Part shown: in pieces, positions 354 to 27,850 of the stretch
How positions within the stretch are numbered: position 1 is the first letter of the stretch
Layout of the letters: the number at the start of each line of letters is the position of its first letter
From: Minisyncoccota bacterium
GTDB taxonomy: Bacteria; Patescibacteriota; Minisyncoccia; Phycocordibacterales; UBA9973
NCBI GenBank assembly: GCA_017992485.1
Contig: JAGOOL010000001.1
Location: 1-27,850, forward strand
Length of the DNA: 27,850 nt
Direction of reading: 5' to 3'
Program-made: the position numbers and the translations under genes
Notes under the pieces: model-generated
Told to the model about the DNA's origin: nothing
The model's database searches: none
The model's input: the letters and a program-made list of their open reading frames with translations, nothing else

Positions 354-1101
354 AATTTTTAGTGTAACGTTGGCGAATATAATACTCTTGAGCGATCGTT
401 ACAATGATGTTTACTGCCCAATAAATACCGATTGCTGCCGGGAGTGTATATACAAAGAAACCAACCATGACCGGGAGGAAATATTTCATGCTGTTTTGCA
501 TCGATTGCTGCATTTCAGCCTGCATATTTTTCTTTGAAACTCCTTCGGTGGTAACAGCCGGGATTGTAACTGCTTTATTTTGATTAGCAGTACGCATTGC
601 AAGCCATGCTTGAACGAACTGAAGAGCGGCAACAACAAGAGCGAGACCAATCAAATGATTGTGAGTAATATCAAAACCGAGGAACATCGTACTGACGTTC
701 TCAGGGAAGTGAACTGTGCCATAAAGAAATTCTTGGTGTGGAGTAAAGCCACCAAGAACGACACGATAGAGCGCAATAATAATCGGGAACTGGATCAAAA
801 GGAGGAAACAGCCTGTGAAAGGATTGACCTTGTGCTCTTTGTAGAGCTCAAAAGTCTTTTTGCTCTGCATATTCTTGTCAGTGGCATGTTCTTCACGGAT
901 TTTCTGCAATTTTGGCTCAATTGCTTTCATGGCAACCTGACTTTTGATCATTTTCGCTGTAAATGGCAACAAAATAATCTTTACCAAGAGGGTAAGGGCG
1001 ACAACAGCCAGTCCAGCATTACCTGCAAAGAGGATAATGAGGAGGACAAGAAGATTATAAAGTGGTTTGTAGAGTATTGCGTTCCAAAGGGTTTTTAACA
1101 T
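337..1101 (-). CDS. yidC: YidC/Oxa1 membrane protein insertase, short form without a large periplasmic domain
   Basis: Motifs AVVALTLLVKIILLP, YKEHKVNPFTGC and LLIQFPIIIALY, C-terminal GIYW; canonical position in the rpmH-rnpA-yidD-yidC-jag operon. Confidence 0.96.
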   Translation of the reverse strand: MLKTLWNAILYKPLYNLLVLLIILFAGNAGLAVVALTLLVKIILLPFTAKMIKSQVAMKAIEPKLQKIREEHATDKNMQSKKTFELYKEHKVNPFTGCFLLLIQFPIIIALYRVVLGGFTPHQEFLYGTVHFPENVSTMFLGFDITHNHLIGLALVVAALQFVQAWLAMRTANQNKAVTIPAVTTEGVSKKNMQAEMQQSMQNSMKYFLPVMVGFFVYTLPAAIGIYWAVNIIVTIAQEYYIRQRYTKNYERNN

Positions 1102-1149
1102 GCCCGTATTGTAACGGAGTGAGGGTAAAAAAGCTATTACAGAGAGAAA

Positions 1150-1404
1150 TTATTGAACCGGATCGTAACCACCATCATTAAATGGATGACACTTACTGAT
1201 TCTTTTAAGTGACACTGGAATTCCTTTCAGTAATCCGTACTTTTCAATAGCATCAATCGCATATTCTGAGCATGTCGGATGAAAACGACATATTCTTTTT
1301 TGAAAAATATATTTTAAGAAGCTGTGATCAGGAGAAAGAAAACGCTGATACCCTTTTATGAGGGCTATAGCGATGCGCTTTAGGATTTTTTCAATGTTTT
1401 GCAT
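1150..1404 (-). CDS. yidD: Membrane protein insertion efficiency factor YidD
   Basis: [26 protein letters not shown] and [16 protein letters not shown] signature; synteny. Confidence 0.96.
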
Positions 1405-1712
1405 ATTGTCTCAACTGCTGTAACAAGTGTCTTGTATGGAGCGTCTATCGCTTCACGATTTGGCATAAAAACAATCGAGTAGGGAAGTGTGTACATTTTA
1501 GCAGTTTTAAGTGCTGAATATATCCGACGGCGGACCTTATTGCGTTCTACTGCCGTTTTGAAGATCTTTTTAGAGGCGGCGACGGCAAATGTCGGCTTAT
1601 TGGCCTCATTTTTCATATATTTCATTAGAAAATAAGGGTTTTTTAGCGTTTTGGCACGTGAAAAAAGGAGAGGGACCTCTTCTCCTTTCATTCTGTTAGC
1701 CTTAGGTAGCAT
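1380..1712 (-). CDS. rnpA: Ribonuclease P protein component
   Basis: MLPKANR start and the RNR motif [17 protein letters not shown]; starts 1 nt after the rpmH stop. Confidence 0.93.
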
Positions 1713-1713
1713 A

Positions 1714-1863
1714 CTATTTTTTGTGGCTTGAGACCGTCAAAGCCTTGCGGCCCTTGCGGCGACGGCGGACGAGAACTTTCTGGCCGGTCGAAGTTTTGCC
1801 ACGCGTAAGAAAACCATGGGTCTTCGCGCGCTTTCGTTTTTTCGGCTGGTATGTTTGTGACAT
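1714..1863 (-). CDS. rpmH: 50S ribosomal protein bL34
   Basis: Manual translation (49 aa): [49 protein letters not shown]. It has the L34 signature TYQP..RKR..THGF..R and is divergent from dnaA. Too short for the ORF track. Confidence 0.97.
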
Positions 1864-1948
1864 GTGAAGCAATATACACTAGTATACCTATTTAGACAAT
1901 ACTCAGAAAAGCTTTATAAAACATTGTGTAATATTTCATGAAAATATG

Positions 1949-2010
1949 TGTGGATTGAGGAAACCTATATAGGACAAGGTATTAATTGCCTTATCAACAA
2001 GTTATCCACA
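1949..2010. promoter_or_regulatory. DnaA boxes upstream of dnaA (left part of oriC and/or dnaA autoregulation)
   Basis: Perfect TTATCCACA at 2002-2010, TTATCAACA at 1991-1999 (1 mismatch), TGTGGATTG at 1949-1957 (2 mismatches). Confidence 0.8.
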
Positions 2011-2033
2011 TATTATTCTAAAAAGCACAAGGT

Positions 2034-2061
2034 TTGCAGACAGCGAAGAGAAGCCTATAAT
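2034..2061 (+). promoter_or_regulatory. dnaA promoter, probably leaderless
   Basis: TTGCAG (2034-2039), 16 nt, TATAAT (2056-2061), then 6 nt to ATG 2068. Confidence 0.6.
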
Positions 2062-2067
2062 GATGCC

Positions 2068-3429
2068 ATGTTAGATACTAGAGAAATTTGGAATAGCTGT
2101 CTTCGAGATATCGAGAAGGAAGTTTCAGGCGCTAACTTTAGTACATGGTTTAAAAACACACATATTGCAAAGGAGGATTCAGGAACTATTTATGTGGGCG
2201 TTCCAAACGAATTCGTAAAGGAATGGCTTACCACAAAGTACACACCAACAATCTTGCGTATTCTTATGACGTACTTGGATAACGCTCGAAGTGTTGAGTA
2301 CACCATCACAAGATTTGATAGAGACCGAACAAAAGACGAGAGTCCGGTGCATATTTTGCCGTCACGAGAGCTTCCTCTTAAAGATCTCTATATTAATAAG
2401 GAAGATAACCTTAATCCTCGCTATATTTTCGACACATTTATTGTTGGATCGTTCAATGAGCTCGCTTATGCTGCCGCTCAGGCAATCATCAACAAACCTG
2501 GTGTTCTCTATAACCCATTCTTTATCTACGGAAGTACTGGTCTCGGCAAAACCCACCTTATGCAGGCGACAGGTAACGCCATCAAGGAAAAATACCCTGA
2601 GAAAAAGGTTCATTACATTACGCTTGAGAAGTTTGCGAACGACTATATCAACTCTTTGCAGGGGAATAGCAAGTCAAACCCGTTCCAATTCAAGGAAAAG
2701 TACCGAAAATATGACTGTCTCCTTATCGATGACATCCAATTCATCGGCAAAATGGAAAAAACACAGGAAGAACTCTTCCATCTCTTTAATACGTTCTACG
2801 ATCACAATAAGCAAATTATCTTTTCTTCCGACAAACACCCAAACTTCATCCCGGGTCTCGAGGATCGCCTCAAATCACGCTTCTCCGCCGGAATGATCGT
2901 CGACTTTGTTGACCCGGATTATGAGTCTCGTGTCGCTATTCTCAAGGCAAAGAGTCGTCAGCTTGGTATTGAAATTACTGACGAGGTTATGTCATTCATT
3001 GCAACCTCTATCCAAGGCAACATTCGAGAGCTTGAAGGCGTTTTAAACACGATTATCGTCCAGACACAGCTCAAGCAGAAGCCGCTTTCGATAAATGAGA
3101 TCAAAAACCTCATTAAAAACAGCGTCAAACCAAAGAAAAACGTCTCTGTTAAGGATATCGTTAAGCTCATCACTGATTTTTACAACCTCGAAGAGGCTAC
3201 TGTCTATGAGAAAACCCGTAGAAAGGAAATTGTTAAGGCTCGTCAAGTAATTATGTATATTCTCCGAGAAGATTTTAATGTTTCTTACCCTTTGATCGGC
3301 CAAAAGCTCGGCGGTAAAGACCACACAACTGTCATCCACTCACACTTAAAGATCCGAAACGATCTTAAGGTAGATCAAACGTTAGTTGATGAAGTTGAAC
3401 AAATTCGCGTTCTTTTTAAGAGTGTTTAG
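2068..3429 (+). CDS. dnaA: Chromosomal replication initiator DnaA (453 aa)
   Basis: Walker A GSTGLGKT, Walker B LLIDDIQF, domain IV KARQVIMY and GGKDHTTVIH. Start reassigned from GTG 1948 to ATG 2068 (MLDTREIW), because the extension covers DnaA boxes and the promoter. Confidence 0.98.
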   Translation: MLDTREIWNSCLRDIEKEVSGANFSTWFKNTHIAKEDSGTIYVGVPNEFVKEWLTTKYTPTILRILMTYLDNARSVEYTITRFDRDRTKDESPVHILPSRELPLKDLYINKEDNLNPRYIFDTFIVGSFNELAYAAAQAIINKPGVLYNPFFIYGSTGLGKTHLMQATGNAIKEKYPEKKVHYITLEKFANDYINSLQGNSKSNPFQFKEKYRKYDCLLIDDIQFIGKMEKTQEELFHLFNTFYDHNKQIIFSSDKHPNFIPGLEDRLKSRFSAGMIVDFVDPDYESRVAILKAKSRQLGIEITDEVMSFIATSIQGNIRELEGVLNTIIVQTQLKQKPLSINEIKNLIKNSVKPKKNVSVKDIVKLITDFYNLEEATVYEKTRRKEIVKARQVIMYILREDFNVSYPLIGQKLGGKDHTTVIHSHLKIRNDLKVDQTLVDEVEQIRVLFKSV

Positions 3430-3670
3430 TTTTCAAAACTGGGGATAAATCGGTTAATAAGTGGATAACTATTCTAGGAAAACCACATGAATAGCTTGTG
3501 GATGTAAAAAGAACAACTTGGAGGTAGTGTGGTTAGGTGGAAAACGAGCCGACGTTATCCACAAAACCAAAAACACGGTTTCCAAAACAGGGTATATGGA
3601 TTAAGGCCTAAAAAGTAATCCACATATCCACAGCGCTAATAGTAATAATAGATTCTTAATATATAAATAT
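3430..3670. other. oriC: Replication origin oriC (dnaA-dnaN intergenic unwinding region)
   Basis: DnaA boxes at 3440-3448 (TGGGGATAA), 3460-3468 (AGTGGATAA), 3497-3505 (TGTGGATGT), 3555-3563 (perfect TTATCCACA), and tandem 3616-3624 and 3624-3632. These are followed by GCG, the trio-like run CTA-ATA-GTA-ATA-ATA (3636-3650) and an AT-only tract. Confidence 0.88.
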
Positions 3671-4768
3671 ATGAGACTAGAGTGCATAAGTGAAAAACTA
3701 AAAAGTATTGTAAGTACAGCAGATCGAATAACAGGAAAGAATGTTGCACTTCCGGCTCTTTCATCTATCCTCCTTGTTGCATCAGGTAAGAGTCTCAAGG
3801 TTAGAGCGACCAATTTGAGTCTTGGTATTGAGATAGAAATCCCAGCCAAAATTGAAGAGGAAGGTACTATTGCTATTACGGGCGCAGTTCTCAACAGTTT
3901 CCTCGGCAATATCCCCAATACTGGAACAGTGAGTCTTGTGGCAGAGAAAGATAATATTCGTTTGGCTTCAAAAACGAGTAATGCTTTGATTAAATGCCTT
4001 CCATATGAAGATTTTCCAACACTACCTTCTGTCGACGGTGCAACATTTACTGTTCCAATAGAAAAACTCCTTGATGGTTTCCGTTCAGTCATGTTTGCCG
4101 GTGCTGTTTCTGATATAAAGCCGGAAATTGCCTCAGTTTACGTCTATACGGACAACGACGATCTTGTTTTCGTAGCTACGGACTCATTTCGCCTTGCTGA
4201 AAAGAAAGTAAAACTCAAAGAACCAATTGATATTCCCTCGATTATCATTCCACTCAAGAATGTTGTTGATATTGTTCGCACTTTTGAATCGGTTGACGGT
4301 GATATGTCTGTAACTATTTCTGAACATCAGATTTCATTTACTACAAATGGCGTGTACGTCACTAGTCGCCTCATTAACGGTACCTTCCCTGATTATCGGC
4401 AGATTATCCCAAAAGAGCACACAACAGACGCTGTGGTACTCAAATCAGACCTCACACAGGCACTCAAGCTTTCAAACGTCTTCGCCGGAAAATTTAATCA
4501 AATAACATTCACACTCGACCCTGAGGCAAAAGAATGTTCACTCGCTTCTCGTAATAGTGATGTTGGTGAGCAAAAAACCACAGTCAGTGGAGCAATGAAA
4601 GGAAATAAAATCGAAGTCCTGGTTAATTACCGTTACCTTTCAGAAGTTCTCAATGTCATTGGCAGTGATAGTGTTTCTATTGAGTGTAGTGAATCAAATC
4701 GTCCTATTTTGGTAGAAGGTGTTGGTGATAAAGGATTTCTCTATCTCATGATGCCGATGAATCGGTAA
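3671..4768 (+). CDS. dnaN: DNA polymerase III beta sliding clamp
   Basis: 365 aa; LKVRATNL, VATDSFRLAEK, SRLINGTFPDYRQIIP, YLMMPM; follows dnaA. Confidence 0.98.
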   Translation: MRLECISEKLKSIVSTADRITGKNVALPALSSILLVASGKSLKVRATNLSLGIEIEIPAKIEEEGTIAITGAVLNSFLGNIPNTGTVSLVAEKDNIRLASKTSNALIKCLPYEDFPTLPSVDGATFTVPIEKLLDGFRSVMFAGAVSDIKPEIASVYVYTDNDDLVFVATDSFRLAEKKVKLKEPIDIPSIIIPLKNVVDIVRTFESVDGDMSVTISEHQISFTTNGVYVTSRLINGTFPDYRQIIPKEHTTDAVVLKSDLTQALKLSNVFAGKFNQITFTLDPEAKECSLASRNSDVGEQKTTVSGAMKGNKIEVLVNYRYLSEVLNVIGSDSVSIECSESNRPILVEGVGDKGFLYLMMPMNR

Positions 4769-4804
4769 TTTCTCCAAAAAGTATTTTAGGAGTACTATCA
4801 AACT

Positions 4805-5056
4805 ATGAATTCTTTTGCTTCATTTTCCGAAGATATTAGAAAAAGGATAATGAAATCTTTTGATGAGAAGGAAGTTATTTCTCTTGCTCTTAAAAAAATA
4901 GTTAAACAAGATATAAAAAAAGATCTCATTTCTATTCGCGATACTGTCCTCTCTATTCGAGTTAGTGGTGTTTTAAAACAAGAAATTTACGCTAAATCCA
5001 AAGAAATACAGCGCCTATTGAATGGCGCTGGGATTTCCGTAACTGAAATTCGGTAG
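4805..5056 (+). CDS. Small hypothetical protein, possibly DciA/DUF721-like
   Basis: 83 aa with AGGAG and TACTAT upstream. The pattern ISIRDTVLSIRVSGVLKQEIYAKSKEIQRLLN resembles the DUF721 core by eye only. Confidence 0.6.
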   Translation: MNSFASFSEDIRKRIMKSFDEKEVISLALKKIVKQDIKKDLISIRDTVLSIRVSGVLKQEIYAKSKEIQRLLNGAGISVTEIR

Positions 5057-5088: not shown

Positions 5089-7620
5089 TTATAGTCCTGA
5101 AACTGTGAAGCTAACTGTAGCTTCTTTTTTATTGAATATAGAATCAGTAGCTATGGCTTTCAACTCATTAAGTGAACTAATACTGGCAACTGATGATGGT
5201 GTGACAGTAAATGAGAATGGTGAATTATCTGAAGTTCCGATATATGTTTCGTTGATAAAGTAATCAACTTTCTTTATTTGATTTGGACTACTTACAGAAA
5301 CCAAAACAGTCAGTGCTGCATTTGCATCATATGTTGTGTTTGTATTTGGAGTGAGGATACTAACACCGATACTATTTTGGCTTGTGTGGACATTGTCATA
5401 GTAGGTTGGAGGAGGAATATTTCCTGTATTTGGAATTAAACCAGGATGTTCTGCTGCCCACTTAAGAACAGGAGCTTCCCAGAGATGGAATTGAGGATCA
5501 GAACTTGGGTTTGTTGGAACTGGTCCTGTTGGGTCATTTTTATTTACCCAATAGAGAATATCGTGAACACCTGTTGTAACAACTTCTTTTTTTGTTTCAT
5601 CAGGAGTAAATTCTGTTGCAAGCCCACCAGAAACTGTATCAATAAAATAGCTTTGGCCGCCTTGCCACTGACCACGGAGAACAGGTTTGAGTGAACTATA
5701 ATTTTCAGGTTGATTTGGTTCTTCAAATTGTTCGTTTGGCATAGTCTTGAGTGCTTCAGCCATAAATGCGTGCCAAAGTGGACCAGAGACCGCAGATCCA
5801 CCTTTTGTCATTTTTGAATTATCACTATTGCCTGACCAGGCACCAACTGCAATCGTTGGAGTGTATCCCATAACCCAAGCATCACGGTTGTCGTTTGTTG
5901 TACCAGTTTTAGCTGCAACATCACGACCAGCGAAGTAGAGAGGGGAGTTTGCACCAAACGTTGGAATACGAGCATTATTATCAGAGAGAACATCAGAAAT
6001 TTGGAGAGCAACATTTTTCGGAATAACTTGAACACTTTCTTCTTTATATTCCTCAATAATCTTTCCATCTTTATCTGTAACAGTAAGAACCGGTGTTGGT
6101 TGCATACGAACACCTTCGTTTGCAAAAACACCATAAGCACTAGTCATATCAAGAAGTGAAACTTCACCACCACCGAGTACGAGGGTGAGGCCATATGTTT
6201 TTGCTTCACCAAGAGAGTGAATACCCATATCTTTTGCAGTTTTAAGTGTTTCATCGAGACCAGCGAGATAGAGTGTTTTAACAGCTGGAACGTTTCGTGA
6301 TTCAGCGAGCGCACTTCTCATTGAAATCGGACCCTTAAAAAGGTTATCGAAGTTGTCCGGATTGTAGCAAGATGCACTGTTACCGGAACATGAATTTGAG
6401 AATTCTGTTGGAACATCAAAAAGAACAGTTTCAGGCAGGAATCCTTTTTCAAATGCAGTCGCATAAGCAAATGGCTTAAATGATGAACCAGGCTGACGAG
6501 GAGAAGTCGCAGAATTAAAGTTTGGATCGAACTTACAGTCTTTTCCGGAAATACAACCTTCAGGAAGCGCTTTACCGAAATAATCTCGACTACCAACCAT
6601 AGTTAAAATCTGGCCGGTTTTTGGATCAACTGCAACAAGTCCAGCATTTGAGGCCTTGGCTGTTTTTTCATTTTTCTCCGCCCATTCCTTAACTATTTTT
6701 TCACCCTTTTCTTGAAGGCTCCAATCAAGTGTTGTAATAACTTTGAGTCCACCAGTATATACGGTATCTTCACCGTATTTGTTCATAAGGTAATCACGAA
6801 CATAAAAAACGAAGTGTGGTGCTTTGATACCGACTTGTTCTTTTGGTTGAAAAACAACAACTTCAGCTTTTGCTGCTGTATATTCTTCCTGGCTAAGGTA
6901 ACCTTGGTCGAACATATTTTTGAGTACTTGGTTTTTTCGGTTTTCAAGTCGATCGAGGTTTTTACCGTATGGAGAATATTGAGTTGGAGATTGAGGAATA
7001 GCTGCGAGGTAAGCAGCTTCTGCAACAGTGAGGTCTGCCGGATTTTTTTTGAAATAGCTCTGAGACGCTTCTTGAACGCCATATATAGCACCGCCATATG
7101 GGTTTTCATTGAGATAGAGAGCAAGAATTTCATCTTTACCGAGTGTCCGGTCGACTTTTATAGAGAGAATCCACTCTTTGAATTTACGCGTGACACTTTT
7201 TTCTTGAGTAAGTAATGAATTCTTGATAACTTGTTGAGTTATTGTTGAGCCTCCTTGTGAGTCACCTTTAAAGATGGTGGAAAAAACCGCTCGAATAATA
7301 GATGTCGGTCGAATACCGTGATGGTTGTAGAATTCTCGATCTTCGATTGAGATTGTCGCGTTTTTAATATTTTCACCCATACTCTCAAGAGGAATAATTG
7401 TGCGTTTAACATCATCATGGAGGTCGTAGAGGAGTGTTTCACCTGTGCGGTCGTAGATTTTTGTCGAATTGAGGATTTTACGATCATTGAGTGATCGAAA
7501 ATCAGGAATTTTAGCTGTTCCTATCCAAATAAATAAAACACCAACAGCAATGGCACCTAAGCCAAGGATGGACAAACCGATATTTCTGATTTTCCGGGAG
7601 ATAATTTTTTTCTTTCTCAT
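5089..7620 (-). CDS. Class A bifunctional penicillin-binding protein (PBP1A family) with C-terminal Ig-like domain
   Basis: N-terminal TM; glycosyltransferase motifs EDREFYNHHG and GGSTITQQ; transpeptidase motifs SSFK, SRN and KTGT; beta-rich C-terminal ~90 aa. Confidence 0.95.
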   Translation of the reverse strand: MRKKKIISRKIRNIGLSILGLGAIAVGVLFIWIGTAKIPDFRSLNDRKILNSTKIYDRTGETLLYDLHDDVKRTIIPLESMGENIKNATISIEDREFYNHHGIRPTSIIRAVFSTIFKGDSQGGSTITQQVIKNSLLTQEKSVTRKFKEWILSIKVDRTLGKDEILALYLNENPYGGAIYGVQEASQSYFKKNPADLTVAEAAYLAAIPQSPTQYSPYGKNLDRLENRKNQVLKNMFDQGYLSQEEYTAAKAEVVVFQPKEQVGIKAPHFVFYVRDYLMNKYGEDTVYTGGLKVITTLDWSLQEKGEKIVKEWAEKNEKTAKASNAGLVAVDPKTGQILTMVGSRDYFGKALPEGCISGKDCKFDPNFNSATSPRQPGSSFKPFAYATAFEKGFLPETVLFDVPTEFSNSCSGNSASCYNPDNFDNLFKGPISMRSALAESRNVPAVKTLYLAGLDETLKTAKDMGIHSLGEAKTYGLTLVLGGGEVSLLDMTSAYGVFANEGVRMQPTPVLTVTDKDGKIIEEYKEESVQVIPKNVALQISDVLSDNNARIPTFGANSPLYFAGRDVAAKTGTTNDNRDAWVMGYTPTIAVGAWSGNSDNSKMTKGGSAVSGPLWHAFMAEALKTMPNEQFEEPNQPENYSSLKPVLRGQWQGGQSYFIDTVSGGLATEFTPDETKKEVVTTGVHDILYWVNKNDPTGPVPTNPSSDPQFHLWEAPVLKWAAEHPGLIPNTGNIPPPTYYDNVHTSQNSIGVSILTPNTNTTYDANAALTVLVSVSSPNQIKKVDYFINETYIGTSDNSPFSFTVTPSSVASISSLNELKAIATDSIFNKKEATVSFTVSGL

Positions 7621-7686
7621 AGGGTATATAGTAGCACGATAAAGATGACGAAATGAGGCCTTTTGTGTTACATTTGAGCCAATACT

Positions 7687-9259: not shown

Positions 9260-9751
9260 CTATTTTCTTGAGGCATATTGGTGTCCGAAAACGGCGGACC
9301 CAGCGAGAGCAATAGCAATTGCGTCCATTTCATCATCCACCATTTTTCGATCGGGGAGCGTTATGAGTTTGCCAACCATCATAGCAACAGCTGACTTTTC
9401 AGCTTTTCCGTAGCCGGTAATGGCGAGCTTTACCTGCATTGGACCGATCTCACGAGTTGGAATACCAAGTTTTCCAGCCGCCGCCAAAATCACACCTCGA
9501 GCCTCGGCAACACCGATTACTGTCGTCACATTCTTCGACATAAAAAGTTGCTCCATAATAAGGAGATCAGGTTTATATTCAAAGAGAATTCGTTCGATCT
9601 CGACTGCAACCACAGCGAGACGTTCTGACATTTCTTGTTTCTTGTCGGTTTGTACAAGCATGGAAAAAAGCAGAGCATCTTTACTGCCATTGCGGTCAAT
9701 TACCGCTATTCCATTTCTATCAAAGCCGGGATCGATACCGATGATTTTCAT
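9260..9751 (-). CDS. ruvC: Holliday junction resolvase RuvC
   Basis: IIGIDPG, LIMEQLF, AEARGVI, VKLAITGYGKAEK and DDEMDAIAIAL catalytic motifs. Confidence 0.97.
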   Translation of the reverse strand: MKIIGIDPGFDRNGIAVIDRNGSKDALLFSMLVQTDKKQEMSERLAVVAVEIERILFEYKPDLLIMEQLFMSKNVTTVIGVAEARGVILAAAGKLGIPTREIGPMQVKLAITGYGKAEKSAVAMMVGKLITLPDRKMVDDEMDAIAIALAGSAVFGHQYASRK

Positions 9752-9769
9752 GGGGTAAGTATAGCGTAT

Positions 9770-12979: not shown

Positions 12980-13082
12980 AGGGAAATTGTAGCATGGAAT
13001 GTCAGAGCAGAGGCCAAAAAGCCTTGTGAAATAGCCCTAAAACGGGTTTCTCCACAACCCATATATAAGTAAGGTCAAGACC

Positions 13083-17446: not shown

Positions 17447-17480
17447 GAAAAACTAAACTTTTTCTAAAATAAGAAAAAGA

Positions 17481-17510
17481 CAAAAAATCTCGCTTCGGCG
17501 GGATTTTTTG
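17481..17510. terminator. Intrinsic terminator
   Basis: CAAAAAATCTCGC-TTCG-GCGGGATTTTTTG after the surface protein gene. Confidence 0.85.
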
Positions 17511-17523
17511 CTATAGTACCGAT

Positions 17524-18000
17524 ATGGAATTAGAGACTAAAAAGGGGAGTGACTTCGGCCGTGTGGCTGTTGCGCTCCAGTCGATGATCGATGACTTCAA
17601 GAGCGATTCAGCCACAGTTGTGGCTCTTTGGGGTGACCTCGGGGCAGGAAAGACGACGCTGACGCAGTACTTGGCCAAGAGTTACGGCATCGAAGACGAA
17701 GTCGTTTCGCCGACATTTGTCATTATGAAAATCTATCCGCTCGCTGACCGAAGCCACGAAGATGATGACTCTGTGAACAATGGTCGCTACGAACGCTTCA
17801 TTCACATGGATGCATACCGTTTTGAAAATCCTGAAGAAGCAGCTGGTATTCGCCTACACGAATACATCGCTGATCCCAAAAATATTATGCTCATCGAATG
17901 GCCGGAGCTTTTGGGTGATGGTTTGCCGGACCGCAGAATCGATGTGAAGATCGCGCATAATGGTGAAGGGAGGAGAATTACGATTGCGGAACATACCTAA
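17524..18000 (+). CDS. tsaE: tRNA t6A biosynthesis ATPase TsaE
   Basis: LWGDLGAGKTT, VVSPTFVIMKIY, HMDAYRF, LIEWPE. Confidence 0.96.
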   Translation: MELETKKGSDFGRVAVALQSMIDDFKSDSATVVALWGDLGAGKTTLTQYLAKSYGIEDEVVSPTFVIMKIYPLADRSHEDDDSVNNGRYERFIHMDAYRFENPEEAAGIRLHEYIADPKNIMLIEWPELLGDGLPDRRIDVKIAHNGEGRRITIAEHT

Positions 18001-18531: not shown

Positions 18532-18589
18532 TGGCATCGTCGCAAATTGCCTCACAATATAATCTGTCAAAATGCTATAATCACTCCAT

Positions 18590-20989
18590 ATGCCAGCCAA
18601 GAAAGCCGCAGCAAAGAAAGAGGGTGCCGAGCTAAAAACTACTAAAACTGCCAAGAAAAAGCGCCTCATTCTCCTCGATACTCATGCGATTTTGCATCGC
18701 GCATATCACGCTATGCCTGATTTTTCTACAGCAGCAGGTGTGCCGACTGGCGCCCTCTATGGTCTTTCGACTATGCTTTTCAAGATTGTCGACGACCTCA
18801 AGCCGGACTATATTGTCGCGGCGTATGACTTGCCGAAGAAAACCTTTCGCCATGAAGTCTACGAAGGCTACAAGGCGGGGCGCAAAACAATTGATGACGC
18901 CCTCAGTACACAGCTCGGCGCTTCCAAAAAATTACTCGAAGATTTTGGCATCCCTGTTTATTCATGCCCCGGTTTTGAGGCCGACGACATGCTTGGCACT
19001 ATTGTTGAACAGCTGAAAGACGACAAAGATATAGAGATATACATTGCAACAGGCGATATGGATACGCTGCAGCTTGTCGACAAAAAGCGCGTGAAGGTCT
19101 TTACCCTTCGAAAGGGAATCACCGATACTATTGTGTACGATGAAGCTGCAGTTAATGAACGCTACGGTTTTGGTCCGGAGCATATTGTCGACTACAAAGG
19201 TTTGCGCGGAGACCCATCCGACAACATCATCGGCGTTCCTGGTGTTGGAGAGAAAACTGCAACCATTTTGATTACGCAGTTCGGTACGATCGAGAACATG
19301 TACAAAGTCCTCAAAAAAAATCCAGAGAAAGTAAAAGCTGCTGGCGTAACTGATCGACTCATGGTCATTTTGCTTGAAAACGAAGAAGAAGCGCTTTTCT
19401 CAAAAACACTTGCGACAATTTCGCGCAATGCTCCAGTTGAATTTATTTTGCCAGAAAAAACATGGCAACTTGGCGTTGATCCGACCCATTTGGAAAAAAC
19501 ATTTACAGAGCTTGAGTTCAAAAGTCTTGTTCCGCGAGTGAAAAAAATGTTCGGTACAAACGATACGACAGGCGAGCGTGTTGAAAGTACAACAGACAAA
19601 GAAGAAATCGAAAAAACTGCGATTGCGCTTTGGTTGATAAATTCCGACATCAGTTACGCAGGGGAGTCTGAAATTTTGTCGTACGCCAAGACTGATAATT
19701 TTGAAAAAGCCAAAGAGAAAATTATGGCTGACCTTGTGACCGAGAAACTCGACAAAGTGTACAGCGAAATTGAATTGCCGATTTACCCGATTGTTCGCAA
19801 GATGGAAACATTTGGTGTTGGTATTGATCAAAAAGTCTTTGCTGATATGTCGAAGAAGTATCATGAGAAAATTGATGCAATCGAAAAAGAAGCGTGGAAA
19901 CTCGCCGGCGAAGAATTTAACCTTGCTTCTCCAAAGCAGCTTGCTGAAATTTTGTTTACCAAACTTGGTCTCAAGCGAAAGACTCGCACGAGTAAAGTTT
20001 CGACAAAAGCCGAAGTCCTCGCTGAGCTTGAAGATGCGCATCCGATCATTCCGCTCATCATGGAGCATCGTGAATATTCAAAGCTTGTCGGTACATATAT
20101 AGATACGATTCCGACAATGGTTGGCGCCGACGGCCGTTTGCATACGCAATTTATTCAACACGGTACAACAACAGGTCGCTTCGCTTCGCTCAATCCAAAC
20201 TTGCAGAACATCCCGATCCGCACAGATGCCGGCCGCGAAATCCGCAAAGGTATGATCGCCGGTCCTGGTCGCTGTCTCATTTCGCTCGACTATTCGCAGA
20301 TTGAGCTTCGTATCATGGCGATATTATCTAAGGATAAAGAATTAATAAAGATTTTTAATGATGGCATCGACGTTCATACGGGCGTCGCTTCACGCGTCTT
20401 CGGCGTATCTCCTGAAGAAGTTACTAAGCAAATGCGCAGCCGCGCCAAGACGATTAACTTCGGCATCATTTATGGCATGGGTATTTCTGCGCTCCAGAAA
20501 AATCTCGGCAGCACACGTGATGAAGCACAGCAATTCCACGATGCATATTTCGAAAACTTTACTGGAGTCGGGAAGTTTATCGAAGACACAAAAGCGTACG
20601 CCAACAAACATTTTTATACTGAAACGCTCTTTGGTCGCAAGCGTCGTTTTCCAGCGCTTCGTTCAGCAATGCCATTTCTCCGTTCGATGGCTGAGCGCAT
20701 GGCTTCGAATGCTCCGCTCCAGGGAACACAGGCTGATATCATTAAGCTCGCTATTCGTTTTGCCGATGAAGACCTCAAGGCCGCAGGCATCAGTGACAAA
20801 GTAAATCTTATTCTCCAGATCCACGACGAACTCGTGTATGAAGTCGATAATGATCTCGCTGACCAATCTGAAAAAATAATTCGCGCTGCTATGGAAAATG
20901 TTTTTCCTCGCTCGTATATAGAGTACAAACCGGAAGTGCCGATTTTGGTATCGAGCGGAAAAGGGGAGACTCTCTACGACTTAAAGTAG
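18590..20989 (+). CDS. polA: DNA polymerase I (5' nuclease plus polymerase; 3'-5' exonuclease domain largely missing)
   Basis: LLDTHAILHRAYHA, FEADD, ATGDMD, LRGDPSDNI.GVPGVGEKTA; motif A SLDYSQIELR, motif B RSRAKTINFGIIYG, motif C LQIHDEL. Confidence 0.97.
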   Translation: MPAKKAAAKKEGAELKTTKTAKKKRLILLDTHAILHRAYHAMPDFSTAAGVPTGALYGLSTMLFKIVDDLKPDYIVAAYDLPKKTFRHEVYEGYKAGRKTIDDALSTQLGASKKLLEDFGIPVYSCPGFEADDMLGTIVEQLKDDKDIEIYIATGDMDTLQLVDKKRVKVFTLRKGITDTIVYDEAAVNERYGFGPEHIVDYKGLRGDPSDNIIGVPGVGEKTATILITQFGTIENMYKVLKKNPEKVKAAGVTDRLMVILLENEEEALFSKTLATISRNAPVEFILPEKTWQLGVDPTHLEKTFTELEFKSLVPRVKKMFGTNDTTGERVESTTDKEEIEKTAIALWLINSDISYAGESEILSYAKTDNFEKAKEKIMADLVTEKLDKVYSEIELPIYPIVRKMETFGVGIDQKVFADMSKKYHEKIDAIEKEAWKLAGEEFNLASPKQLAEILFTKLGLKRKTRTSKVSTKAEVLAELEDAHPIIPLIMEHREYSKLVGTYIDTIPTMVGADGRLHTQFIQHGTTTGRFASLNPNLQNIPIRTDAGREIRKGMIAGPGRCLISLDYSQIELRIMAILSKDKELIKIFNDGIDVHTGVASRVFGVSPEEVTKQMRSRAKTINFGIIYGMGISALQKNLGSTRDEAQQFHDAYFENFTGVGKFIEDTKAYANKHFYTETLFGRKRRFPALRSAMPFLRSMAERMASNAPLQGTQADIIKLAIRFADEDLKAAGISDKVNLILQIHDELVYEVDNDLADQSEKIIRAAMENVFPRSYIEYKPEVPILVSSGKGETLYDLK

Positions 20990-21118
20990 TCAGGAATATA
21001 TTCACTAAAAGGTACGGAAATTTTCTACTGAAAATTTCCTCCTTCTCGCGCCAGTCGCGCTCAAAAGACCTTTTAGTGAATATATTCCTTCCTGGAGTAT
21101 TTCTGATACACTAACCAT

Positions 21119-21625
21119 ATGGATACTCATAACAATCACCATAACCCTAGCGACGACAAGCAGCTCAGTCGGGAGCAACATATCAACTACCTCGGCAGCT
21201 TTCCTCCAATGGTGCAATTTGGTGGCCTCATTCTCGGCGTCTTTATGGAGTTCATTTTGCCGACAAAACTTTTCCCTCCGACAACAGCAAAAATAATCGG
21301 TACAGTACTTGTCGTTCTCGCCACAATTATTATTCTCTGGTCACAAAAAGCATCTGCCGAATTTCGTGCGCGTGAGAAAAAAGGTGAGGCTCGTAATTTC
21401 CGACAAGGCCCGTATCGTTGGAGCGACAACCCGACATCTTTTTCACTCGCTATGCTCATCATCGGTTTTGGTTTTATTGTAAACTCGCTCATGATCGTCG
21501 CACTGTCTGCGATCGCATACTGGATCTCATACATTGTCTACGAAGAAAAGAAACAAAAAATAATGATGGAGACATACAAGGAAGAATATATCGACTACAA
21601 GAAAAAAATTAATTCACTTTTCTAA
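21119..21625 (+). CDS. ICMT/PEMT-family integral membrane methyltransferase-like protein
   Basis: Several TM segments; QGPYRWSDNP resembles GPYxxxR[HN]PxY; C-terminal YEEKK...ETYKEEYIDYKKK resembles EE...L...FG..Y..Y. Confidence 0.7.
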   Translation: MDTHNNHHNPSDDKQLSREQHINYLGSFPPMVQFGGLILGVFMEFILPTKLFPPTTAKIIGTVLVVLATIIILWSQKASAEFRAREKKGEARNFRQGPYRWSDNPTSFSLAMLIIGFGFIVNSLMIVALSAIAYWISYIVYEEKKQKIMMETYKEEYIDYKKKINSLF

Positions 21626-21626
21626 T

Positions 21627-22711: not shown

Positions 22712-22740
22712 TTGCAAAATAAGACTCTTTCGTCTACTAT
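22712..22740 (+). promoter_or_regulatory. Sigma70 promoter for the ZIP gene, near-leaderless
   Basis: TTGCAA (22712-22717), 17 nt, TACTAT (22735-22740), then 8 nt to ATG. Confidence 0.65.
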
Positions 22741-22748
22741 ACGCCTAT

Positions 22749-23498
22749 ATGACAATCGCTATTATTGCTGTTCTCGTCTTTACCGCAACACTTCTCGGCG
22801 GTTTCTTCGCGCTCAAATTTAAAGACAAGCTCCATCTCATTGTTGGCTTTTCGGCTGGCGCTGTTCTCGGCATTGCGTTCATTGACTTGCTTCCGGAGGC
22901 GGCTGAGCTTGTCGGTTCGTCAGAGCTCTCGCTCCAGATCGCGCTCGCGGCTGTGCTCGGCTACATGATTATAGATCGTGTGTTCTTCAATCACTCACAC
23001 AGTCATCATCATGAACATGAAAATGAAGTTCACGAACACAAGGGTCGGGGGATTGTACGCGCAACAAGTTTGGTGCTCCACAGTTTTCTTGATGGTCTTG
23101 CTATTGGTTTCTCATTTCAAGTTTCAATAGCGACCGGTGCTGTTGTTGCGATTGCAGTTCTTGCGCATGATTTTTCTGATGGTATCAATACTGTCGCCGC
23201 GATTTTGAAAGGTGGCGACAATGGTGTCAACGGCGAGAAAAAAAATATGGGTGCGAAGAAGTGGCTTGTTATCGATGCAGTCGCACCGGTTGTTGGTATC
23301 ATCGTCGGCTCGATCTTCGTCGTCAATGCATTTTCACTCGGTGTCATTATTTCTATCTTCGCCGGTTTCTTTGTGTATATCGCGCTCGCCGATATGATCC
23401 CGGAAAGTTTTCATTCGCATCCAAAAAAATGGACGACAATCATGACGGTGCTCGGTGTCGCGTTCATCGCACTCGTTATGCATTTTGCGCATTTCTAA
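22749..23498 (+). CDS. ZIP (ZupT/GufA) family divalent metal transporter
   Basis: GFSAGAVLGIAFIDLLPEA, His-rich loop HSHSHHHEHENEVHEH, LVLHSFLDGLAIG, AVLAHDFSDG, ADMIPE. Confidence 0.93.
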   Translation: MTIAIIAVLVFTATLLGGFFALKFKDKLHLIVGFSAGAVLGIAFIDLLPEAAELVGSSELSLQIALAAVLGYMIIDRVFFNHSHSHHHEHENEVHEHKGRGIVRATSLVLHSFLDGLAIGFSFQVSIATGAVVAIAVLAHDFSDGINTVAAILKGGDNGVNGEKKNMGAKKWLVIDAVAPVVGIIVGSIFVVNAFSLGVIISIFAGFFVYIALADMIPESFHSHPKKWTTIMTVLGVAFIALVMHFAHF

Positions 23499-23614: not shown

Positions 23615-23687
23615 CCGCCCGTAGCTCAGTCGGTAGAGCAGCTCCCTTTTAAGGAGAGGGTCGCAGGTTCGATTCCTGCCGGGCGGA
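23615..23687 (+). tRNA. tRNA-Lys(UUU)
   Basis: Cloverleaf: CCGCCCG/CGGGCGG acceptor stem, GCTC-AGTCGGTA-GAGC D arm, anticodon loop CT-TTT-AA, GCAGG-TTCGATT-CCTGC T arm, discriminator A. It is followed by CCT, so CCA is not fully encoded. Confidence 0.96.
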
Positions 23688-23723
23688 CCTGAAGAGTTGT
23701 AAATTAAGTAGTACTATTACTTC

Positions 23724-23993
23724 ATGCAAACAAAAAGAAAACTCAAGGCCTCGATACTTGTCATTGTGGGACTTATATTAATTATTTTTAGACAAGAAGT
23801 TTTTACTGCAGTCGGTAGTTCAGCATCTCCTTTTATTGATAAACATATTACAAATGACTCACTGGCTTTTTTGGCATATCTCCTTACGATGTTCTCTTTT
23901 CCTTTAATAATGTTGGTTGCGGTGATAATGGTTATTTCGGGGGCCTATTTACTGTTTACTCGCGCTGAGCAAAAAACAGAAGTATTAAAATAA
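23724..23993 (+). CDS. Small membrane hypothetical protein (2 TM)
   Basis: 89 aa with two hydrophobic segments; TACTAT 6 nt before the ATG. Confidence 0.7.
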   Translation: MQTKRKLKASILVIVGLILIIFRQEVFTAVGSSASPFIDKHITNDSLAFLAYLLTMFSFPLIMLVAVIMVISGAYLLFTRAEQKTEVLK

Positions 23994-24003
23994 AATTATC
24001 TTT

Positions 24004-24651
24004 ATGGACTTAAAAAACTTTTTCCTCACATTCGAGCATTACGACATCGTTGCTATTGCACTGTTTATATTTGTTATGATTGCTTCTGGGTTCACAAAGA
24101 ATACTGGCACTCAATTAAGTAAAGAAATAGATACGGCTAAGTTGTATCCGGACATTCGACATATTTATATAAAATATTTTAGAGTACGCAGTGGTTTCAA
24201 TCTCATGGGTGCCGTTACCGGAAACGAACCGATCTATGTTGTAAATAGTCCTTTCTTTTGGAGCTATAAAATTGCATGGCCACAGCAACTACTAAGACTT
24301 AGCTTTGCTGGCTTAGGTATTATCTTGGGAATAGCAATTTTGGCATTATTTTTTACATTTAAAAATACTTTTAATCCGCAAATAGCGAACATCGTTCTTG
24401 TGTTAGCAGTTCTCACTTCAGTCCTGATATTTTTCTTGCAAAAGAAACTACAAAATAGAATTAGAAAAAACCTTAACGATTTTAATAAAGAAATAGATCT
24501 TTTCCTCCAGTCTCGATCAATAAATAGAAATGATATTGCACTACCGGTTAATTACCAGTACGGAAGTGGTTCGTTAAAGTATTCATTTCTAATAACATTG
24601 TTTATTGGTATTGTCTTACCAGTCATTCTTATTTTGTTTGTTCAAGAATAA
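24004..24651 (+). CDS. Membrane hypothetical protein (about 4 TM)
   Basis: 215 aa, AT-rich, hydrophobic segments at the N-terminus, middle (2) and C-terminus. Confidence 0.75.
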   Translation: MDLKNFFLTFEHYDIVAIALFIFVMIASGFTKNTGTQLSKEIDTAKLYPDIRHIYIKYFRVRSGFNLMGAVTGNEPIYVVNSPFFWSYKIAWPQQLLRLSFAGLGIILGIAILALFFTFKNTFNPQIANIVLVLAVLTSVLIFFLQKKLQNRIRKNLNDFNKEIDLFLQSRSINRNDIALPVNYQYGSGSLKYSFLITLFIGIVLPVILILFVQE

Positions 24652-24663
24652 GTAAATACATCT

Positions 24664-25176: not shown

Positions 25177-25206
25177 ATAGAAAAGGTGCAGAAATCTTTT
25201 GGAAAA

Positions 25207-25368
25207 CTAGCGATCGTATTGCTCAGGTTCCTTGTTGTATGAGCCATCCTTGAGAAATGGTTTTGAGTCCAAGTAACGCTCTGGTCCGCCAGTAAATAGC
25301 CAAATAATATAGAGGGCGACGAGGCCGAGGAAAACATAGAGGAGGTCTTTTTTTGGTTCGAGTGCCAT
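25207..25368 (-). CDS. Small single-pass membrane protein (53 aa)
   Basis: Manual translation: MALEPKKDLLYVFLGLVALYIIWLFTGGPERYLDSKPFLKDGSYNKEPEQYDR. TATACT lies 6 nt before the ATG. Not in the ORF track. Confidence 0.75.
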   Translation of the reverse strand: MALEPKKDLLYVFLGLVALYIIWLFTGGPERYLDSKPFLKDGSYNKEPEQYDR

Positions 25369-25417
25369 GGGAAAAGTATACACCAATTACTAAAATAATT
25401 TTACAGCCCAGCAAATG

Positions 25418-26392
25418 TTACGAATATAATTTCTGATGAACAGGGCAAAAGTGCGCGCTGCGTCCACCAAAGGGAAGTTTCTCAATCGTACCTTTACAGC
25501 CGCGTCTCGGACACGGCTTGCCGGCGCATCGATAGACATTGTGGGCGGACTGGAACTTGCCGCGATTTCCGGTAATGTCTCTGTAGTCACTTGTTGAGTC
25601 ACCACCGAAATCAATACCTTTTTTTAGCACAGTAATCATGCCTTTGTATAAGAGAGATAGAAGATTCTTGGGAATTTTTTCAACAATAGAAAAAGGATGA
25701 ATACCTGCGAGGAAAAGCATTTCATCTGAATAGATATTACCAATACCGGCAATCACTGTTTGGTCGAGCAAAACTATTTTTATTTTGCCACGCGGCTTTT
25801 CCATGAGTCGCTCGACGAATATTTTTTCGGTAAAGCTTTTGTCGAGCGGTTCTGGTCCGAGGTGTTTGAGGTGAATACTCGTTGCTAGGTCGGCTGTATC
25901 GACAAGCGTCATTTTGGCAAACTTGCGAACATCAGAGAGCACGACGTGTTTTCCGTTCGAAAGGGTAAAGACAACGTGAAGAAATCTATTGTATGGATCG
26001 CGAAGCGCATTATTTTTCTCAGTCGGAGATGGTATCCATTCTTTTTTCTTGGTATCGAGTACATATTTCCCAACCATCATATGGCCGGTCATTTTCATAT
26101 GGATCAAAACCGTTTTTTGGTTCTTTGAATAATTTTTTGCTCCAGTTTTTGTGCTGGCAGTTTCGATATGGATCAAAATATTTTTTGCACGACGCGTCAC
26201 CGAAATAACTTTCGCGCCGACAACATGTTTTTTGAATAAAGCAAAAAAGTTTTTATCTTTGTGGGATGTTTTTAGGTGTGGGGAAGTGTGGTTGCCATTT
26301 GCAAGATCGGTCCAGACATCAGTAATACGAAGACCCGGCAAAGTCTTTTGCAGTCCGCTCACGGTTGTGTGTACTTCGGGTAGTTCAGGCAT
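25418..26392 (-). CDS. mutM: Formamidopyrimidine-DNA glycosylase
   Basis: N-terminal PELPEV, RRAKNILI, IHMKMTG, DVRKFA, H2TH motif AGIGNIYSDEMLF, C-terminal zinc finger with GGRSAHFCPVHQ. Confidence 0.96.
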   Translation of the reverse strand: MPELPEVHTTVSGLQKTLPGLRITDVWTDLANGNHTSPHLKTSHKDKNFFALFKKHVVGAKVISVTRRAKNILIHIETASTKTGAKNYSKNQKTVLIHMKMTGHMMVGKYVLDTKKKEWIPSPTEKNNALRDPYNRFLHVVFTLSNGKHVVLSDVRKFAKMTLVDTADLATSIHLKHLGPEPLDKSFTEKIFVERLMEKPRGKIKIVLLDQTVIAGIGNIYSDEMLFLAGIHPFSIVEKIPKNLLSLLYKGMITVLKKGIDFGGDSTSDYRDITGNRGKFQSAHNVYRCAGKPCPRRGCKGTIEKLPFGGRSAHFCPVHQKLYS

Positions 26393-26492
26393 GGTGATTT
26401 AAGAAAACTTTTACTTTACTAAATATTTATTTTAGAAAAAATTACGGACGTGGTTTTGGGCACTATAGTCGCTCGCCAGCGCGCCATTAAAC

Positions 26493-27065
26493 CTACTTCC
26501 CGATATATTTAAGCGCTTCGCGAAGCTTATCATTGAGCGTAACGGCAGTGGCTGGAATTCTCTTGATCGCATCGCGACCTTCTTCTCGCGTATAACCGAG
26601 CTTCATCAAAGCCTCAATAACATCTGAGTCACCAGACAGTTCGCCACTCGCAGCAGTGTGACCAAGGGCCGCAAGTTTGTCACGAAGATCGATAATTATT
26701 TTTTCAGCAGTTTTTCTTCCGATGCCGGAAACACTCGTCAGATACGTCGCGTCGCCAGCACCAATCGCGCGCTGAATCGAATCGATCGAGCCAAGCGAAA
26801 CAATAGCAATCGCCGAACGGGGACCGACACCGGAAACCGTAATAAGCATTTGGAAAAATGTCAGCTCCTGGCGAGTCCGAAAGCCGTACAACTCCATAGA
26901 ATCCTCGCGAACGACCAGGTGAGTAAACAGCGCCATTTCAGCGCCGAGCTTGGCAACGGCAAGCGTCTCGGTAGTAGTTGAGACCTCATAGCCCACACCT
27001 TGGGTTTCGATGATAACCGAGCGGTCTGAAATGTCGGCAATTGTGCCTTTAACGAATGCGATCAT
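26493..27065 (-). CDS. ruvA: Holliday junction DNA-binding protein RuvA
   Basis: MIAFVKG, GVGYEV, LVVREDSMELYGF, HhH motifs VSGVGPRSA and VSGIGRKTAEKI, C-terminal EALMKLGY. Start moved from 27080 to ATG 27065. Confidence 0.97.
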   Translation of the reverse strand: MIAFVKGTIADISDRSVIIETQGVGYEVSTTTETLAVAKLGAEMALFTHLVVREDSMELYGFRTRQELTFFQMLITVSGVGPRSAIAIVSLGSIDSIQRAIGAGDATYLTSVSGIGRKTAEKIIIDLRDKLAALGHTAASGELSGDSDVIEALMKLGYTREEGRDAIKRIPATAVTLNDKLREALKYIGK

Positions 27066-27201
27066 GGAGACAGTATACAAGGAAGCCGCCAGCTTGCATA
27101 TTGCGTCTTTTCTGGTATAGTAATCCCGTCTCAGTCAGTTCGAGCGAAAGCGTAAGCAATCGCAAAAAGTCTCTCGTTATTACCTTATTTAATTACATTC
27201 A

Positions 27202-27456
27202 ATGCCAATCATTAAGTCAGCAAAAAAGGCCCTCCGACAGTCAATCAAGCGTAAAGCTGTGAACGACCGCCGCACCAAGGCTATGCGTGATGCCATCAAA
27301 AAGGTAGAACGTTCAGTCAAGGAAAAGAAGGCCGACGAAGCGAAAAAGCTCCTTCCGGTTGCGTTTGCCGCAATCGACAAGGCCGCAAAGCGTGGCGTCA
27401 TCAAGAAGAATAACGCTTCTCGAAAAAAGGCCCGCCTCGCTCGTATCTCAAAGTAA
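27202..27456 (+). CDS. rpsT: 30S ribosomal protein bS20
   Basis: MPIIKSAKKALRQ, IDKAAKRGVIKKNNASRKKARL. Confidence 0.97.
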   Translation: MPIIKSAKKALRQSIKRKAVNDRRTKAMRDAIKKVERSVKEKKADEAKKLLPVAFAAIDKAAKRGVIKKNNASRKKARLARISK

Positions 27457-27505
27457 GTATAAAAAGTAGTCAAAATACGTTCTGAGCAAACTATAAATTG
27501 AACGC

Positions 27506-27531
27506 AGAAAAAGCCCTTCGGGGTTTTTTCT
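27506..27531 (+). terminator. Intrinsic terminator after rpsT
   Basis: AGAAAAAGCCC-TTCG-GGGTTTTTTCT-TTTTTT. Confidence 0.85.
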
Positions 27532-27614
27532 TTTTTTGGTACCGATGTGATCTAAAGAGTATTTTTCAATTCTATTTTTACTAAGCGAGTCGTCCATGCT
27601 ACACTTTCCAACAT

Positions 27615-27850
27615 ATGGAAGACCACAAACGCCAAACACCACTTACAATAATTATGATCTTGTTCGCGATAATGATTGCTGCTATTTTCCTCGTGAAAGG
27701 GGATGGTACACAAAACAATCCGACAGACACAAATGGTATAGACACACAAAATCCTCCGGTCGTAATTGCGCCAAAATATAAATGCGGCATGACAGTTACA
27801 TCTCCACTTGAGGGAAGCACTGTTTCATTCCCACTACCTGTTCAAGGTGG
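27615..27850 (+). CDS. Membrane-anchored protein, 5' part only, possibly with a Gmad2-type Ig-like domain
   Basis: Manual translation: MEDHKRQTPLTIIMILFAIMIAAIFLVKGDG...CGMTVTSPLEGSTVSFPLPVQG. It has an N-terminal TM and the V.SP..G..V..PL.V.G pattern, with TGcTACACT upstream. It runs off the window. Confidence 0.75.
   Translation, partial: MEDHKRQTPLTIIMILFAIMIAAIFLVKGDGTQNNPTDTNGIDTQNPPVVIAPKYKCGMTVTSPLEGSTVSFPLPVQG

Follow-up and report, generated by a model that had tools for sequence, protein, structure and literature searches.

Probable leaderless gene starts marked by −10 boxes in a Parcubacteria genome without Shine-Dalgarno signals

The question raised by the stretch of DNA considered here is how ribosomes find start codons in a bacterium whose genes carry no evident Shine-Dalgarno (SD) signals. 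The stretch, below called the window, comprises bases 1-27,850 of contig C13, with 28 protein genes counted. Its host is a bacterium of the Candidate Phyla Radiation (CPR; Patescibacteria), class Paceibacteria (Parcubacteria), whose genome of 570 kb in 60 contigs is ~80% complete and has ~43% G+C. Relatives whose PolA is 80-96% identical bear the titles Candidatus Paceibacterota, Parcubacteria or Nomurabacteria; related genomes measure 0.5-0.9 Mb, and some of their 16S genes contain insertions. The elements at issue are hexamers of the form TAnnnT that stand 6-9 nucleotides (nt) before the ATG of many genes, and that an earlier inspection of the letters, the sequence-only reading, had taken for the −10 boxes of leaderless transcripts. 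The evidence from sequence argues that they are probably sigma-70-type −10 elements giving leaderless or near-leaderless mRNAs in an SD-less host. The mechanism is a textbook one, and the value of the finding lies in its breadth and in its bearing on annotation, not in a new principle.

TAnnnT is found at a spacer (the nt between hexamer and ATG) of 6-9 before 18 of the 28 window genes, or 64% raw, versus 3-5 for five sets of control spacers. When the 50-nt upstream regions were shuffled 2000 times with dinucleotides preserved, the mean was 3.72 with a standard deviation of 1.75 and a maximum of 11, so that no shuffle reached 18. Four of the 18 sites had been picked by use of the rule itself, namely the dnaA and ruvA starts and the open reading frames ORF25368 and ORF27615. 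The window is unusually rich in leaderless-type starts.

For the genome as a whole a simple longest-ORF gene set, with ~505 long ORFs, was used. TAnnnT most often starts at −12 relative to the first ATG (16% of ~500 long ORFs), with 8% at −13 and ~3% at other offsets, and the motif stands at spacer 6-8 before a candidate ATG in 36% of 505 ORFs versus 15-20% at nine control spacer sets. A position weight matrix trained on half of the genes and tested on the other half put 27.7% above a 5% false-positive threshold. When genes are disregarded, TGnTAnnnT-N6-ATG is present 55 times versus ~18 at other spacings, and extended −10 boxes no more than 120 nt from gene starts number 50 in the spacer 6-8 bin versus ~3-4 per other 3-nt bin. 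ATG counts at spacers 6, 7, 8 and 9 are 95, 59, 42 and 45 versus a background of ~30, and no spacer peak is present before GTG or TTG genome-wide. Leaderless initiation depends on AUG, and the confinement of the peak to ATG matches that dependence. Genome-wide positional enrichment was the check that the sequence-only reading had itself proposed, and it is borne out by the −12 peak, which exceeds the control spacings, as well as by the window count, which exceeds the shuffles.

The commonest hexamers genome-wide are TATAAT, TATACT and TACAAT. TGn precedes the hexamer in 49 of 148 sites versus ~9 expected (5.5-fold), and 127 of the 148 have a pyrimidine at −1, followed by the purine A. A −35 signal is weak (at least four of six matches in 23% versus 13%) and appears in sites lacking TG; a two-hexamer promoter scan of 8000-27850, with 43 sites versus 34.3±5.7 in shuffles, is uninformative for leaderless sites because most of them are without a good −35. 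With regard to gene context, the box is found before 46% of genes following a divergent gene versus 23% for the control, after 56% versus 20% of gaps of 51-100 nt, and after 31% versus 14% of gaps of 0-20 nt; the genome-wide context count gave no enrichment before overlapping genes. The net excess is ~120 of the 505 long ORFs, or ~24%.

The sites in the window are given below by coordinates and strand. On a coordinate check all 15 hexamer and spacer pairs of the sequence-only reading proved exact, its six TGn extensions (PBP1A, pilB, tsaE, polA, ICMT-like and ORF27615) are present in the sequence, and the ruvC box does lie within the 18-nt ruvB-ruvC gap. Three further sites, marked as added, were absent from its list.

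351..369, minus strand: jag/khpB start (added); TACACT, spacer 7, ATG 353; box inside the yidC 3′ end; KH_KhpA-B Pfam match.
1099..1116, minus strand: yidC start; TACAAT, spacer 6, ATG 1101; 60KD_IMP Pfam match.
1861..1879, minus strand: rpmH start; TATATT, spacer 7, ATG 1863; Ribosomal_L34 profile positions 1-44 on residues 1-44.
2053..2070, plus strand: dnaA start; TATAAT, spacer 6, ATG 2068 and not the upstream GTG 1948; DnaA_N profile positions 2-63 on residues 6-66 counted from ATG 2068.
3654..3673, plus strand: dnaN start (added); TAATAT, spacer 8, ATG 3671; a weak box in an AT-only tract; DNA_pol3_beta profile positions 1-120 on residues 1-119.
4790..4807, plus strand: ORF4805 start; TACTAT, spacer 6, ATG; AGGAG just upstream, probably by chance.
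7618..7636, minus strand: PBP1A start; TGcTACTAT (extended −10), spacer 7, ATG 7620; Transgly and Transpeptidase Pfam matches.
9749..9766, minus strand: ruvC start; TATACT, spacer 6, ATG 9751, in the 18-nt gap behind ruvB; RuvC profile positions 1-146 on residues 3-149.
12977..12994, minus strand: pilB (T2SSE ATPase) start; TGcTACAAT, spacer 6, ATG 12979; Pfam match.
17480..17526, plus strand: tsaE start; terminator hairpin CTCGCTTCGGCGGG and T-run, then TGcTATAGT, spacer 6, ATG 17524; box and spacing kept in five genus relatives.
18573..18592, plus strand: polA start; TGcTATAAT, spacer 8, ATG 18590; conserved in an alignment of six sequences.
21104..21121, plus strand: PEMT/ICMT-like methyltransferase start; TGaTACACT, spacer 6, ATG 21119; PEMT Pfam match.
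22712..22751, plus strand: ZIP transporter start; −35 TTGCAA, 17 nt, TACTAT, spacer 8, ATG 22749; both hexamers and spacings kept in five genus relatives.
23709..23726, plus strand: ORF23724 start; TACTAT, spacer 6, ATG; 37 nt behind a tRNA gene.
23988..24006, plus strand: ORF24004 start (added); TAAAAT, spacer 7, ATG; box overlapping the ORF23724 end; a weak case.
25366..25383, minus strand: ORF25368, candidate 53-residue microprotein; TATACT, spacer 6, ATG; no Pfam family.
27063..27080, minus strand: ruvA start; TATACT, spacer 6, ATG 27065 and not TTG 27080; RuvA_N profile positions 1-61 on residues 1-61.
27597..27617, plus strand: ORF27615 start; TGcTACACT, spacer 9, ATG; N-terminus with a charged head and one transmembrane helix; the ORF enters a scaffold gap.

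Pfam profiles align from the N-terminus at the rule-predicted ATGs of rpmH, dnaN, ruvC, ruvA and dnaA. For dnaA and ruvA, whose starts the sequence-only reading had corrected by the rule, the support is independent because the shorter proteins are matched from the N-terminus by DnaA_N and RuvA_N. The SD-like sequence that had been pointed out before ORF4805 exists, as AGGAG, but is probably a chance occurrence because 12 nt separate it from the ATG and the genome is otherwise free of SD motifs. At tsaE the T-tract of the terminator (17480-17517, plus strand) adjoins the −10 box and doubles as the upstream spacer of the promoter; terminator, promoter and start codon fit within less than 50 nt, an arrangement present also in relatives before tsaE and polA. 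The window ends (27850) at a 100-N scaffold gap inside ORF27615.

Conservation in relatives is centred on the same few bases. In six aligned genus-level sequences upstream of polA only TG, TATAAT, AT and ATG are invariant, and sequence further upstream is unalignable. The tsaE box is TATAGT, TATAAT or TATACT, 6-7 nt before ATG, in five relatives with diverged flanks, and TTGCAA-17-TACTAT-8/9-ATG is kept before ZIP in five relatives; in all, 5-7 genus-level relatives have the polA, tsaE and ZIP boxes and spacings with little or no change. In one tsaE orthologue (L012) the in-frame ATG that lies 6 nt behind TATACT is four codons ahead of the aligned start, and the −10 rule would shift the start of this gene upstream to that ATG. 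A genome from a different genus of the same family (G013; 400 kb examined) has the same peak, weaker, and no SD. Across 153 reciprocal-best orthologues, presence of the box in one genus goes with its presence in the other (odds ratio 2.45, p=0.009, versus ~1.1 for control spacings), and the box stands before ~50% of these conserved genes raw, about a third net. Both the sequence statistics and the conservation are direct observations. As to the proposal that most housekeeping genes are expressed gene by gene from leaderless transcripts, a large leaderless class is indeed indicated but ‘most’ is overstated: the predicted layout is that of about a quarter of genes genome-wide (~24% net) and about a third, net, of conserved orthologues, a mixed picture.

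On the translation side, GGAG, GAGG, AGGAG and GGAGG have no positional peak upstream of starts in the host genome, and GGAG-N4-9-ATG occurs 247 times versus 219 for the reversed control. SD absence is observed in the host itself, and anti-SD absence in its relatives. No 16S gene was found in the ~80% complete host genome, and its anti-SD state is taken from the 16S tails of relatives, where helix 45, in eight members of the family or order and in the same-genus genome G001, ends GGAAUCAUUCAA or GGAUUAAUUCA instead of GGAUCACCUCCUUA, without CCUCC. The look at the 16S tail that had been suggested earlier is answered here from relatives, same genus included. The ribosomal protein uL1 (PF00687) was found in none of 31 related genomes (G000-G030; 24 at least 90% complete) versus 14 of 14 control genomes, and all 31 have a multi-domain S1 protein. 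As judged from these features, with the anti-SD part inferred from relatives, the host is probably a member of the anti-SD-less, uL1-less subgroup of Parcubacteria. A search of two same-genus genomes (G000 and G007) for ribosomal protein bS21 (PF01165) gave no match, and two family members have only a weak one; of the control genomes, Thermus, Deinococcus and Corynebacterium, which belong to the classic leaderless-rich phyla, also lack it. A substitute SD that would pair with the changed 16S tail was considered and rejected, TGAAT, GAATT, AATTA, ATTAA and TTAAT being without a positional peak.

The layout is not peculiar to the host. A crude leaderless index, TGNTANNNTNNNNNNATG versus its reversed pattern, is 2.6 in the host and 0.9-1.6 in four non-CPR genomes, on small counts and with an imperfect control. 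Genomes with an index of at least 2, tallied by hand, make up ~45 of 60 other Paceibacteria and ~49 of 77 other CPR genomes. A corresponding GGAG-N4-9-ATG index is ~1.0-1.4 in the host, two order mates and some eight other genomes, and 2-4 in most of the class; the leaderless index is seen in both SD-using and non-SD CPR genomes. G047, of the same class, and G126, of another class, show the TAnnnT peak at spacer 6 before ATG only (39 versus ~13 and 61 versus ~15), together with a GGAG/AGGA peak at −8 to −13, i.e. SD is still used. Leaderless layout as a consequence of anti-SD loss was therefore rejected, because SD-using CPR genomes share the peak; the sequence comparisons suggest a trait common in CPR, and one that the host lineage now relies on more heavily. 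A more far-reaching version, held here only tentatively, is that initiation may be wholly independent of pairing, with ATG-placed promoters, also those within or close behind an upstream gene, selecting the starts of about a third of conserved genes, and that the layout may be old in Patescibacteria, preceding and easing the loss of the anti-SD. In the course of these comparisons a 0.6-Mb metagenome-assembled genome (MAG) titled ‘Crocinitomicaceae bacterium’ (L034/G093) was encountered, with PolA 49% identical to that of the host and a leaderless index of 112 versus 20; these values suggest a CPR genome that was mislabelled.

Where a box is lacking, positions −20 to −2 are rich in A (40-50%) and poor in G and SD is absent, and some of these genes begin directly behind the stop of the preceding gene or overlap it. 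At holA the stop TAA is 1 nt before the ATG, which is kept in relatives. ORF13183, for a 599-residue secreted protein, has TTGACT-17-TATCAT (promoter 13083-13111, plus strand), its −10 box lying 71 nt ahead of the ATG; ORF18096 has TTGACA-16-TAAATT (promoter 18036-18063, plus strand), with 32 nt between −10 box and ATG and an A-rich leader. No SD is evident before either, and, judged by their predicted promoters, the two have leaders and run counter to the leaderless rule. Of all sigma-70 matches in the window the best, TTGACA-17-TATACT with TG (10816-10844, plus strand; 11 of 12 matches), points away from ruvB into the ruvB-pilB intergenic region and has no ORF start at leaderless distance.

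Pfam backs the names of yidC, yidD, rnpA, rpmH, dnaA, dnaN, PBP1A, ruvC, ruvB and the pilB-type ATPase, as well as tsaE, polA, the PEMT/ICMT-like methyltransferase, ZIP and ruvA, and adds a class-I Tyr/Trp-tRNA synthetase (7687), holA (21627), a SpoU methylase (24664), mutM (26392) and the KhpB/Jag-like protein (353). In metatranscriptome run X26 short contigs are nearly identical to the window at 8681-8833, 8945-9106, 11236-11485 and 14393-14607, that at 8945-9106 covering most of a 57-residue acidic ORF (8969-9142); these place the sequence in an RNA library and are too short and few to show transcript starts. In a sequencing-run search two RNA runs matched window positions 900-2100, with small shares each, and none matched 15000-24999; the X26 contigs are what the two RNA runs gave over positions 1-20000. 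DNA runs from 12 studies contain the stretch.

As to mechanism, the putative −10 boxes, often extended as TGnTAnnnT and with little or no −35, would be set 6, less often 7-9, nt before the ATG. RNA polymerase usually starts ~7 nt after the last T of a −10 box, which would put the first transcribed base at the A of the AUG or 1-3 nt ahead of it, and the 5′-terminal AUG would be recognised by the ribosome with initiator tRNA, without mRNA-rRNA pairing. Some leaderless genes would be inside same-strand clusters, with the box in a short gap or in the end of the preceding gene (ruvC, jag and ORF24004), and for the remaining genes translation would start on A-rich, G-poor leaders or be coupled to that of the gene before. 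That the boxes are placed for a start at or near the AUG in a non-SD organism, as had been proposed, agrees with every in-silico test: position, ATG specificity, TGn, conserved footprints, SD absence and the anti-SD absence in relatives.

Several considerations count against leaderless initiation as the explanation. TAnnnT is a loose motif with a background of 15-20% of genes, and the dnaN, ORF24004 and rpmH boxes may be due to chance. Transcripts from spacers of 8-9 may carry a leader of 1-3 nt, and boxes in tiny gaps or inside upstream genes may be minor internal promoters atop read-through transcripts. Three quarters of genes have no box, so that this is not the general rule of the genome; anti-SD loss is known from relatives only, the host 16S gene being missing from the assembly; and the transcript starts are predictions. 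Initiation factor IF3 is present, and in E. coli it disfavours leaderless mRNAs.

Of the other explanations, the one that deserves most attention, though unlikely, is that the boxes are real but secondary promoters, the genes being served mainly by longer leadered or polycistronic transcripts, with A-rich leaders or re-initiation, and leaderless mRNA being minor. The ruvC, jag and ORF24004 boxes, in tiny gaps or inside the preceding same-strand gene, would suit it, as would the modest enrichment 0-20 nt behind a same-strand gene (31% versus 14%), the existence in the window of full −35/−10 promoters with 30-70-nt leaders, and the fact that boxless genes clearly cope without SD. However, many boxed genes (tsaE, polA, pilB, PBP1A and ORF27615) come after a terminator or a divergent gene, with nothing else resembling a promoter ahead of them, and what is conserved between relatives is the box and not the sequence ahead of it.

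Action of the motif at the mRNA level, as an AU-rich translational signal on leadered transcripts, e.g. a replacement SD or an S1-binding enhancer, is very unlikely. A lineage without a canonical anti-SD must still select start codons, all 31 relatives have the multi-domain S1, and upstream regions are A/U-rich in general, but words complementary to the new 16S tail have no positional peak, and the tail varies between relatives whereas the box consensus does not. The 5.5-fold enrichment of TG two bases upstream of the hexamer points the same way, such a TG being a feature of RNA polymerase sigma region 3 contacts, as do the identical ATG-only spacer-6 peak of the SD-using G047 and G126 and a spacing that agrees, to the nucleotide, with the distance from −10 box to +1. 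Chance, by way of AT-rich intergenic sequence and starts chosen post hoc, is scarcely credible. TAnnnT is at 3% of positions, and two starts and two ORFs of the list were picked by the rule, but chance is ruled out by the genome-wide peaks with first-ATG starts, the gene-agnostic counts and the window shuffles (0 of 2000 reaching 18; 3-5 for control spacers in the same regions), to which the cross-validated matrix and conservation in relatives are to be added.

Leaderless or near-leaderless initiation, the preferred explanation, has well-studied parallels. In GeneMarkS-2 group C, exemplified by Mycobacterium tuberculosis and Deinococcus deserti, leaderless transcription is found in 25-50% of operons (PMC6028130, PMC3898074, PMC4007540). 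As in group C, a Pribnow box 6-8 nt from the start codon, with transcription start and start codon coinciding (a prediction for the host), serves a substantial minority of genes and the rest are leadered. The positional −10 peak ~6-8 nt upstream, highest at spacer 6, is present in the window, in the genome and in the family relative, and its character is that of a promoter rather than a ribosome-binding site, with the TATAAT-like consensus, TGn and the conserved TTGCAA-17-TACTAT of ZIP. The earlier parallel with Actinobacteria and Deinococcus-Thermus is apt for this geometry but misses that those phyla keep a CCUCC anti-SD, with SD on leadered and operon-internal genes; the host lacks SD-type ribosome-binding sites on its remaining leadered and operon-internal genes, and the 16S of its relatives lacks the anti-SD. 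The host peak is confined to ATG, whereas D. deserti also has leaderless GUG starts (PMC4007540). Also unlike group C are the prominence of extended TGn and the tiny genome (~0.6-0.7 Mb) of the host.

Most Bacteroidota keep the anti-SD sequence. In GeneMarkS-2 group B (Bacteroidota/Flavobacteriia) a non-SD motif stands before every gene, whether first or internal in its operon, and leaderless transcription does not define the group (PMC6028130). The ~75% of host genes that are boxless, with an A-rich, G-poor leader and no SD, resemble this group (PMC6028130, PMC10783764), whereas the loss of the anti-SD in relatives of the host, and a large predicted leaderless class beside the A-rich leaders, set it apart. 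G047 and G126, as other CPR members, share the leaderless peak and differ by their use of SD, which the host's family is without. Closest is the Parcubacteria subgroup for which Tsurumaki, Saito, Tomita and Kanai (RNA 2022) reported loss of the anti-SD and of uL1, such that SD helices should not form (PMC9297842). The host is like it in lineage, in relatives' 16S without CCUCC and in the lack of uL1 from all 31 genomes; the paper gives no account of start codon selection. A full-text literature search for leaderless genes or transcription start sites in CPR, also under the names Patescibacteria, Parcubacteria and Saccharibacteria, turned up no paper in which leaderless genes are described for CPR, and papers naming both topics do so only in reference lists or legends. 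A TM7x transcriptome preprint is without mention of promoters or untranslated regions, and PMC10783764 does not cover CPR.

A practical consequence is that gene callers tuned to SD will misplace starts, as here with dnaA (too long by 40 codons) and ruvA (by 5 codons), and small genes may be missed; the −10-to-ATG rule can correct starts across thousands of CPR MAGs. For the biology of the group, a leaderless class together with A-rich leaders provides a concrete and testable answer, in part, to how the ribosomes of anti-SD-less Parcubacteria find their starts.

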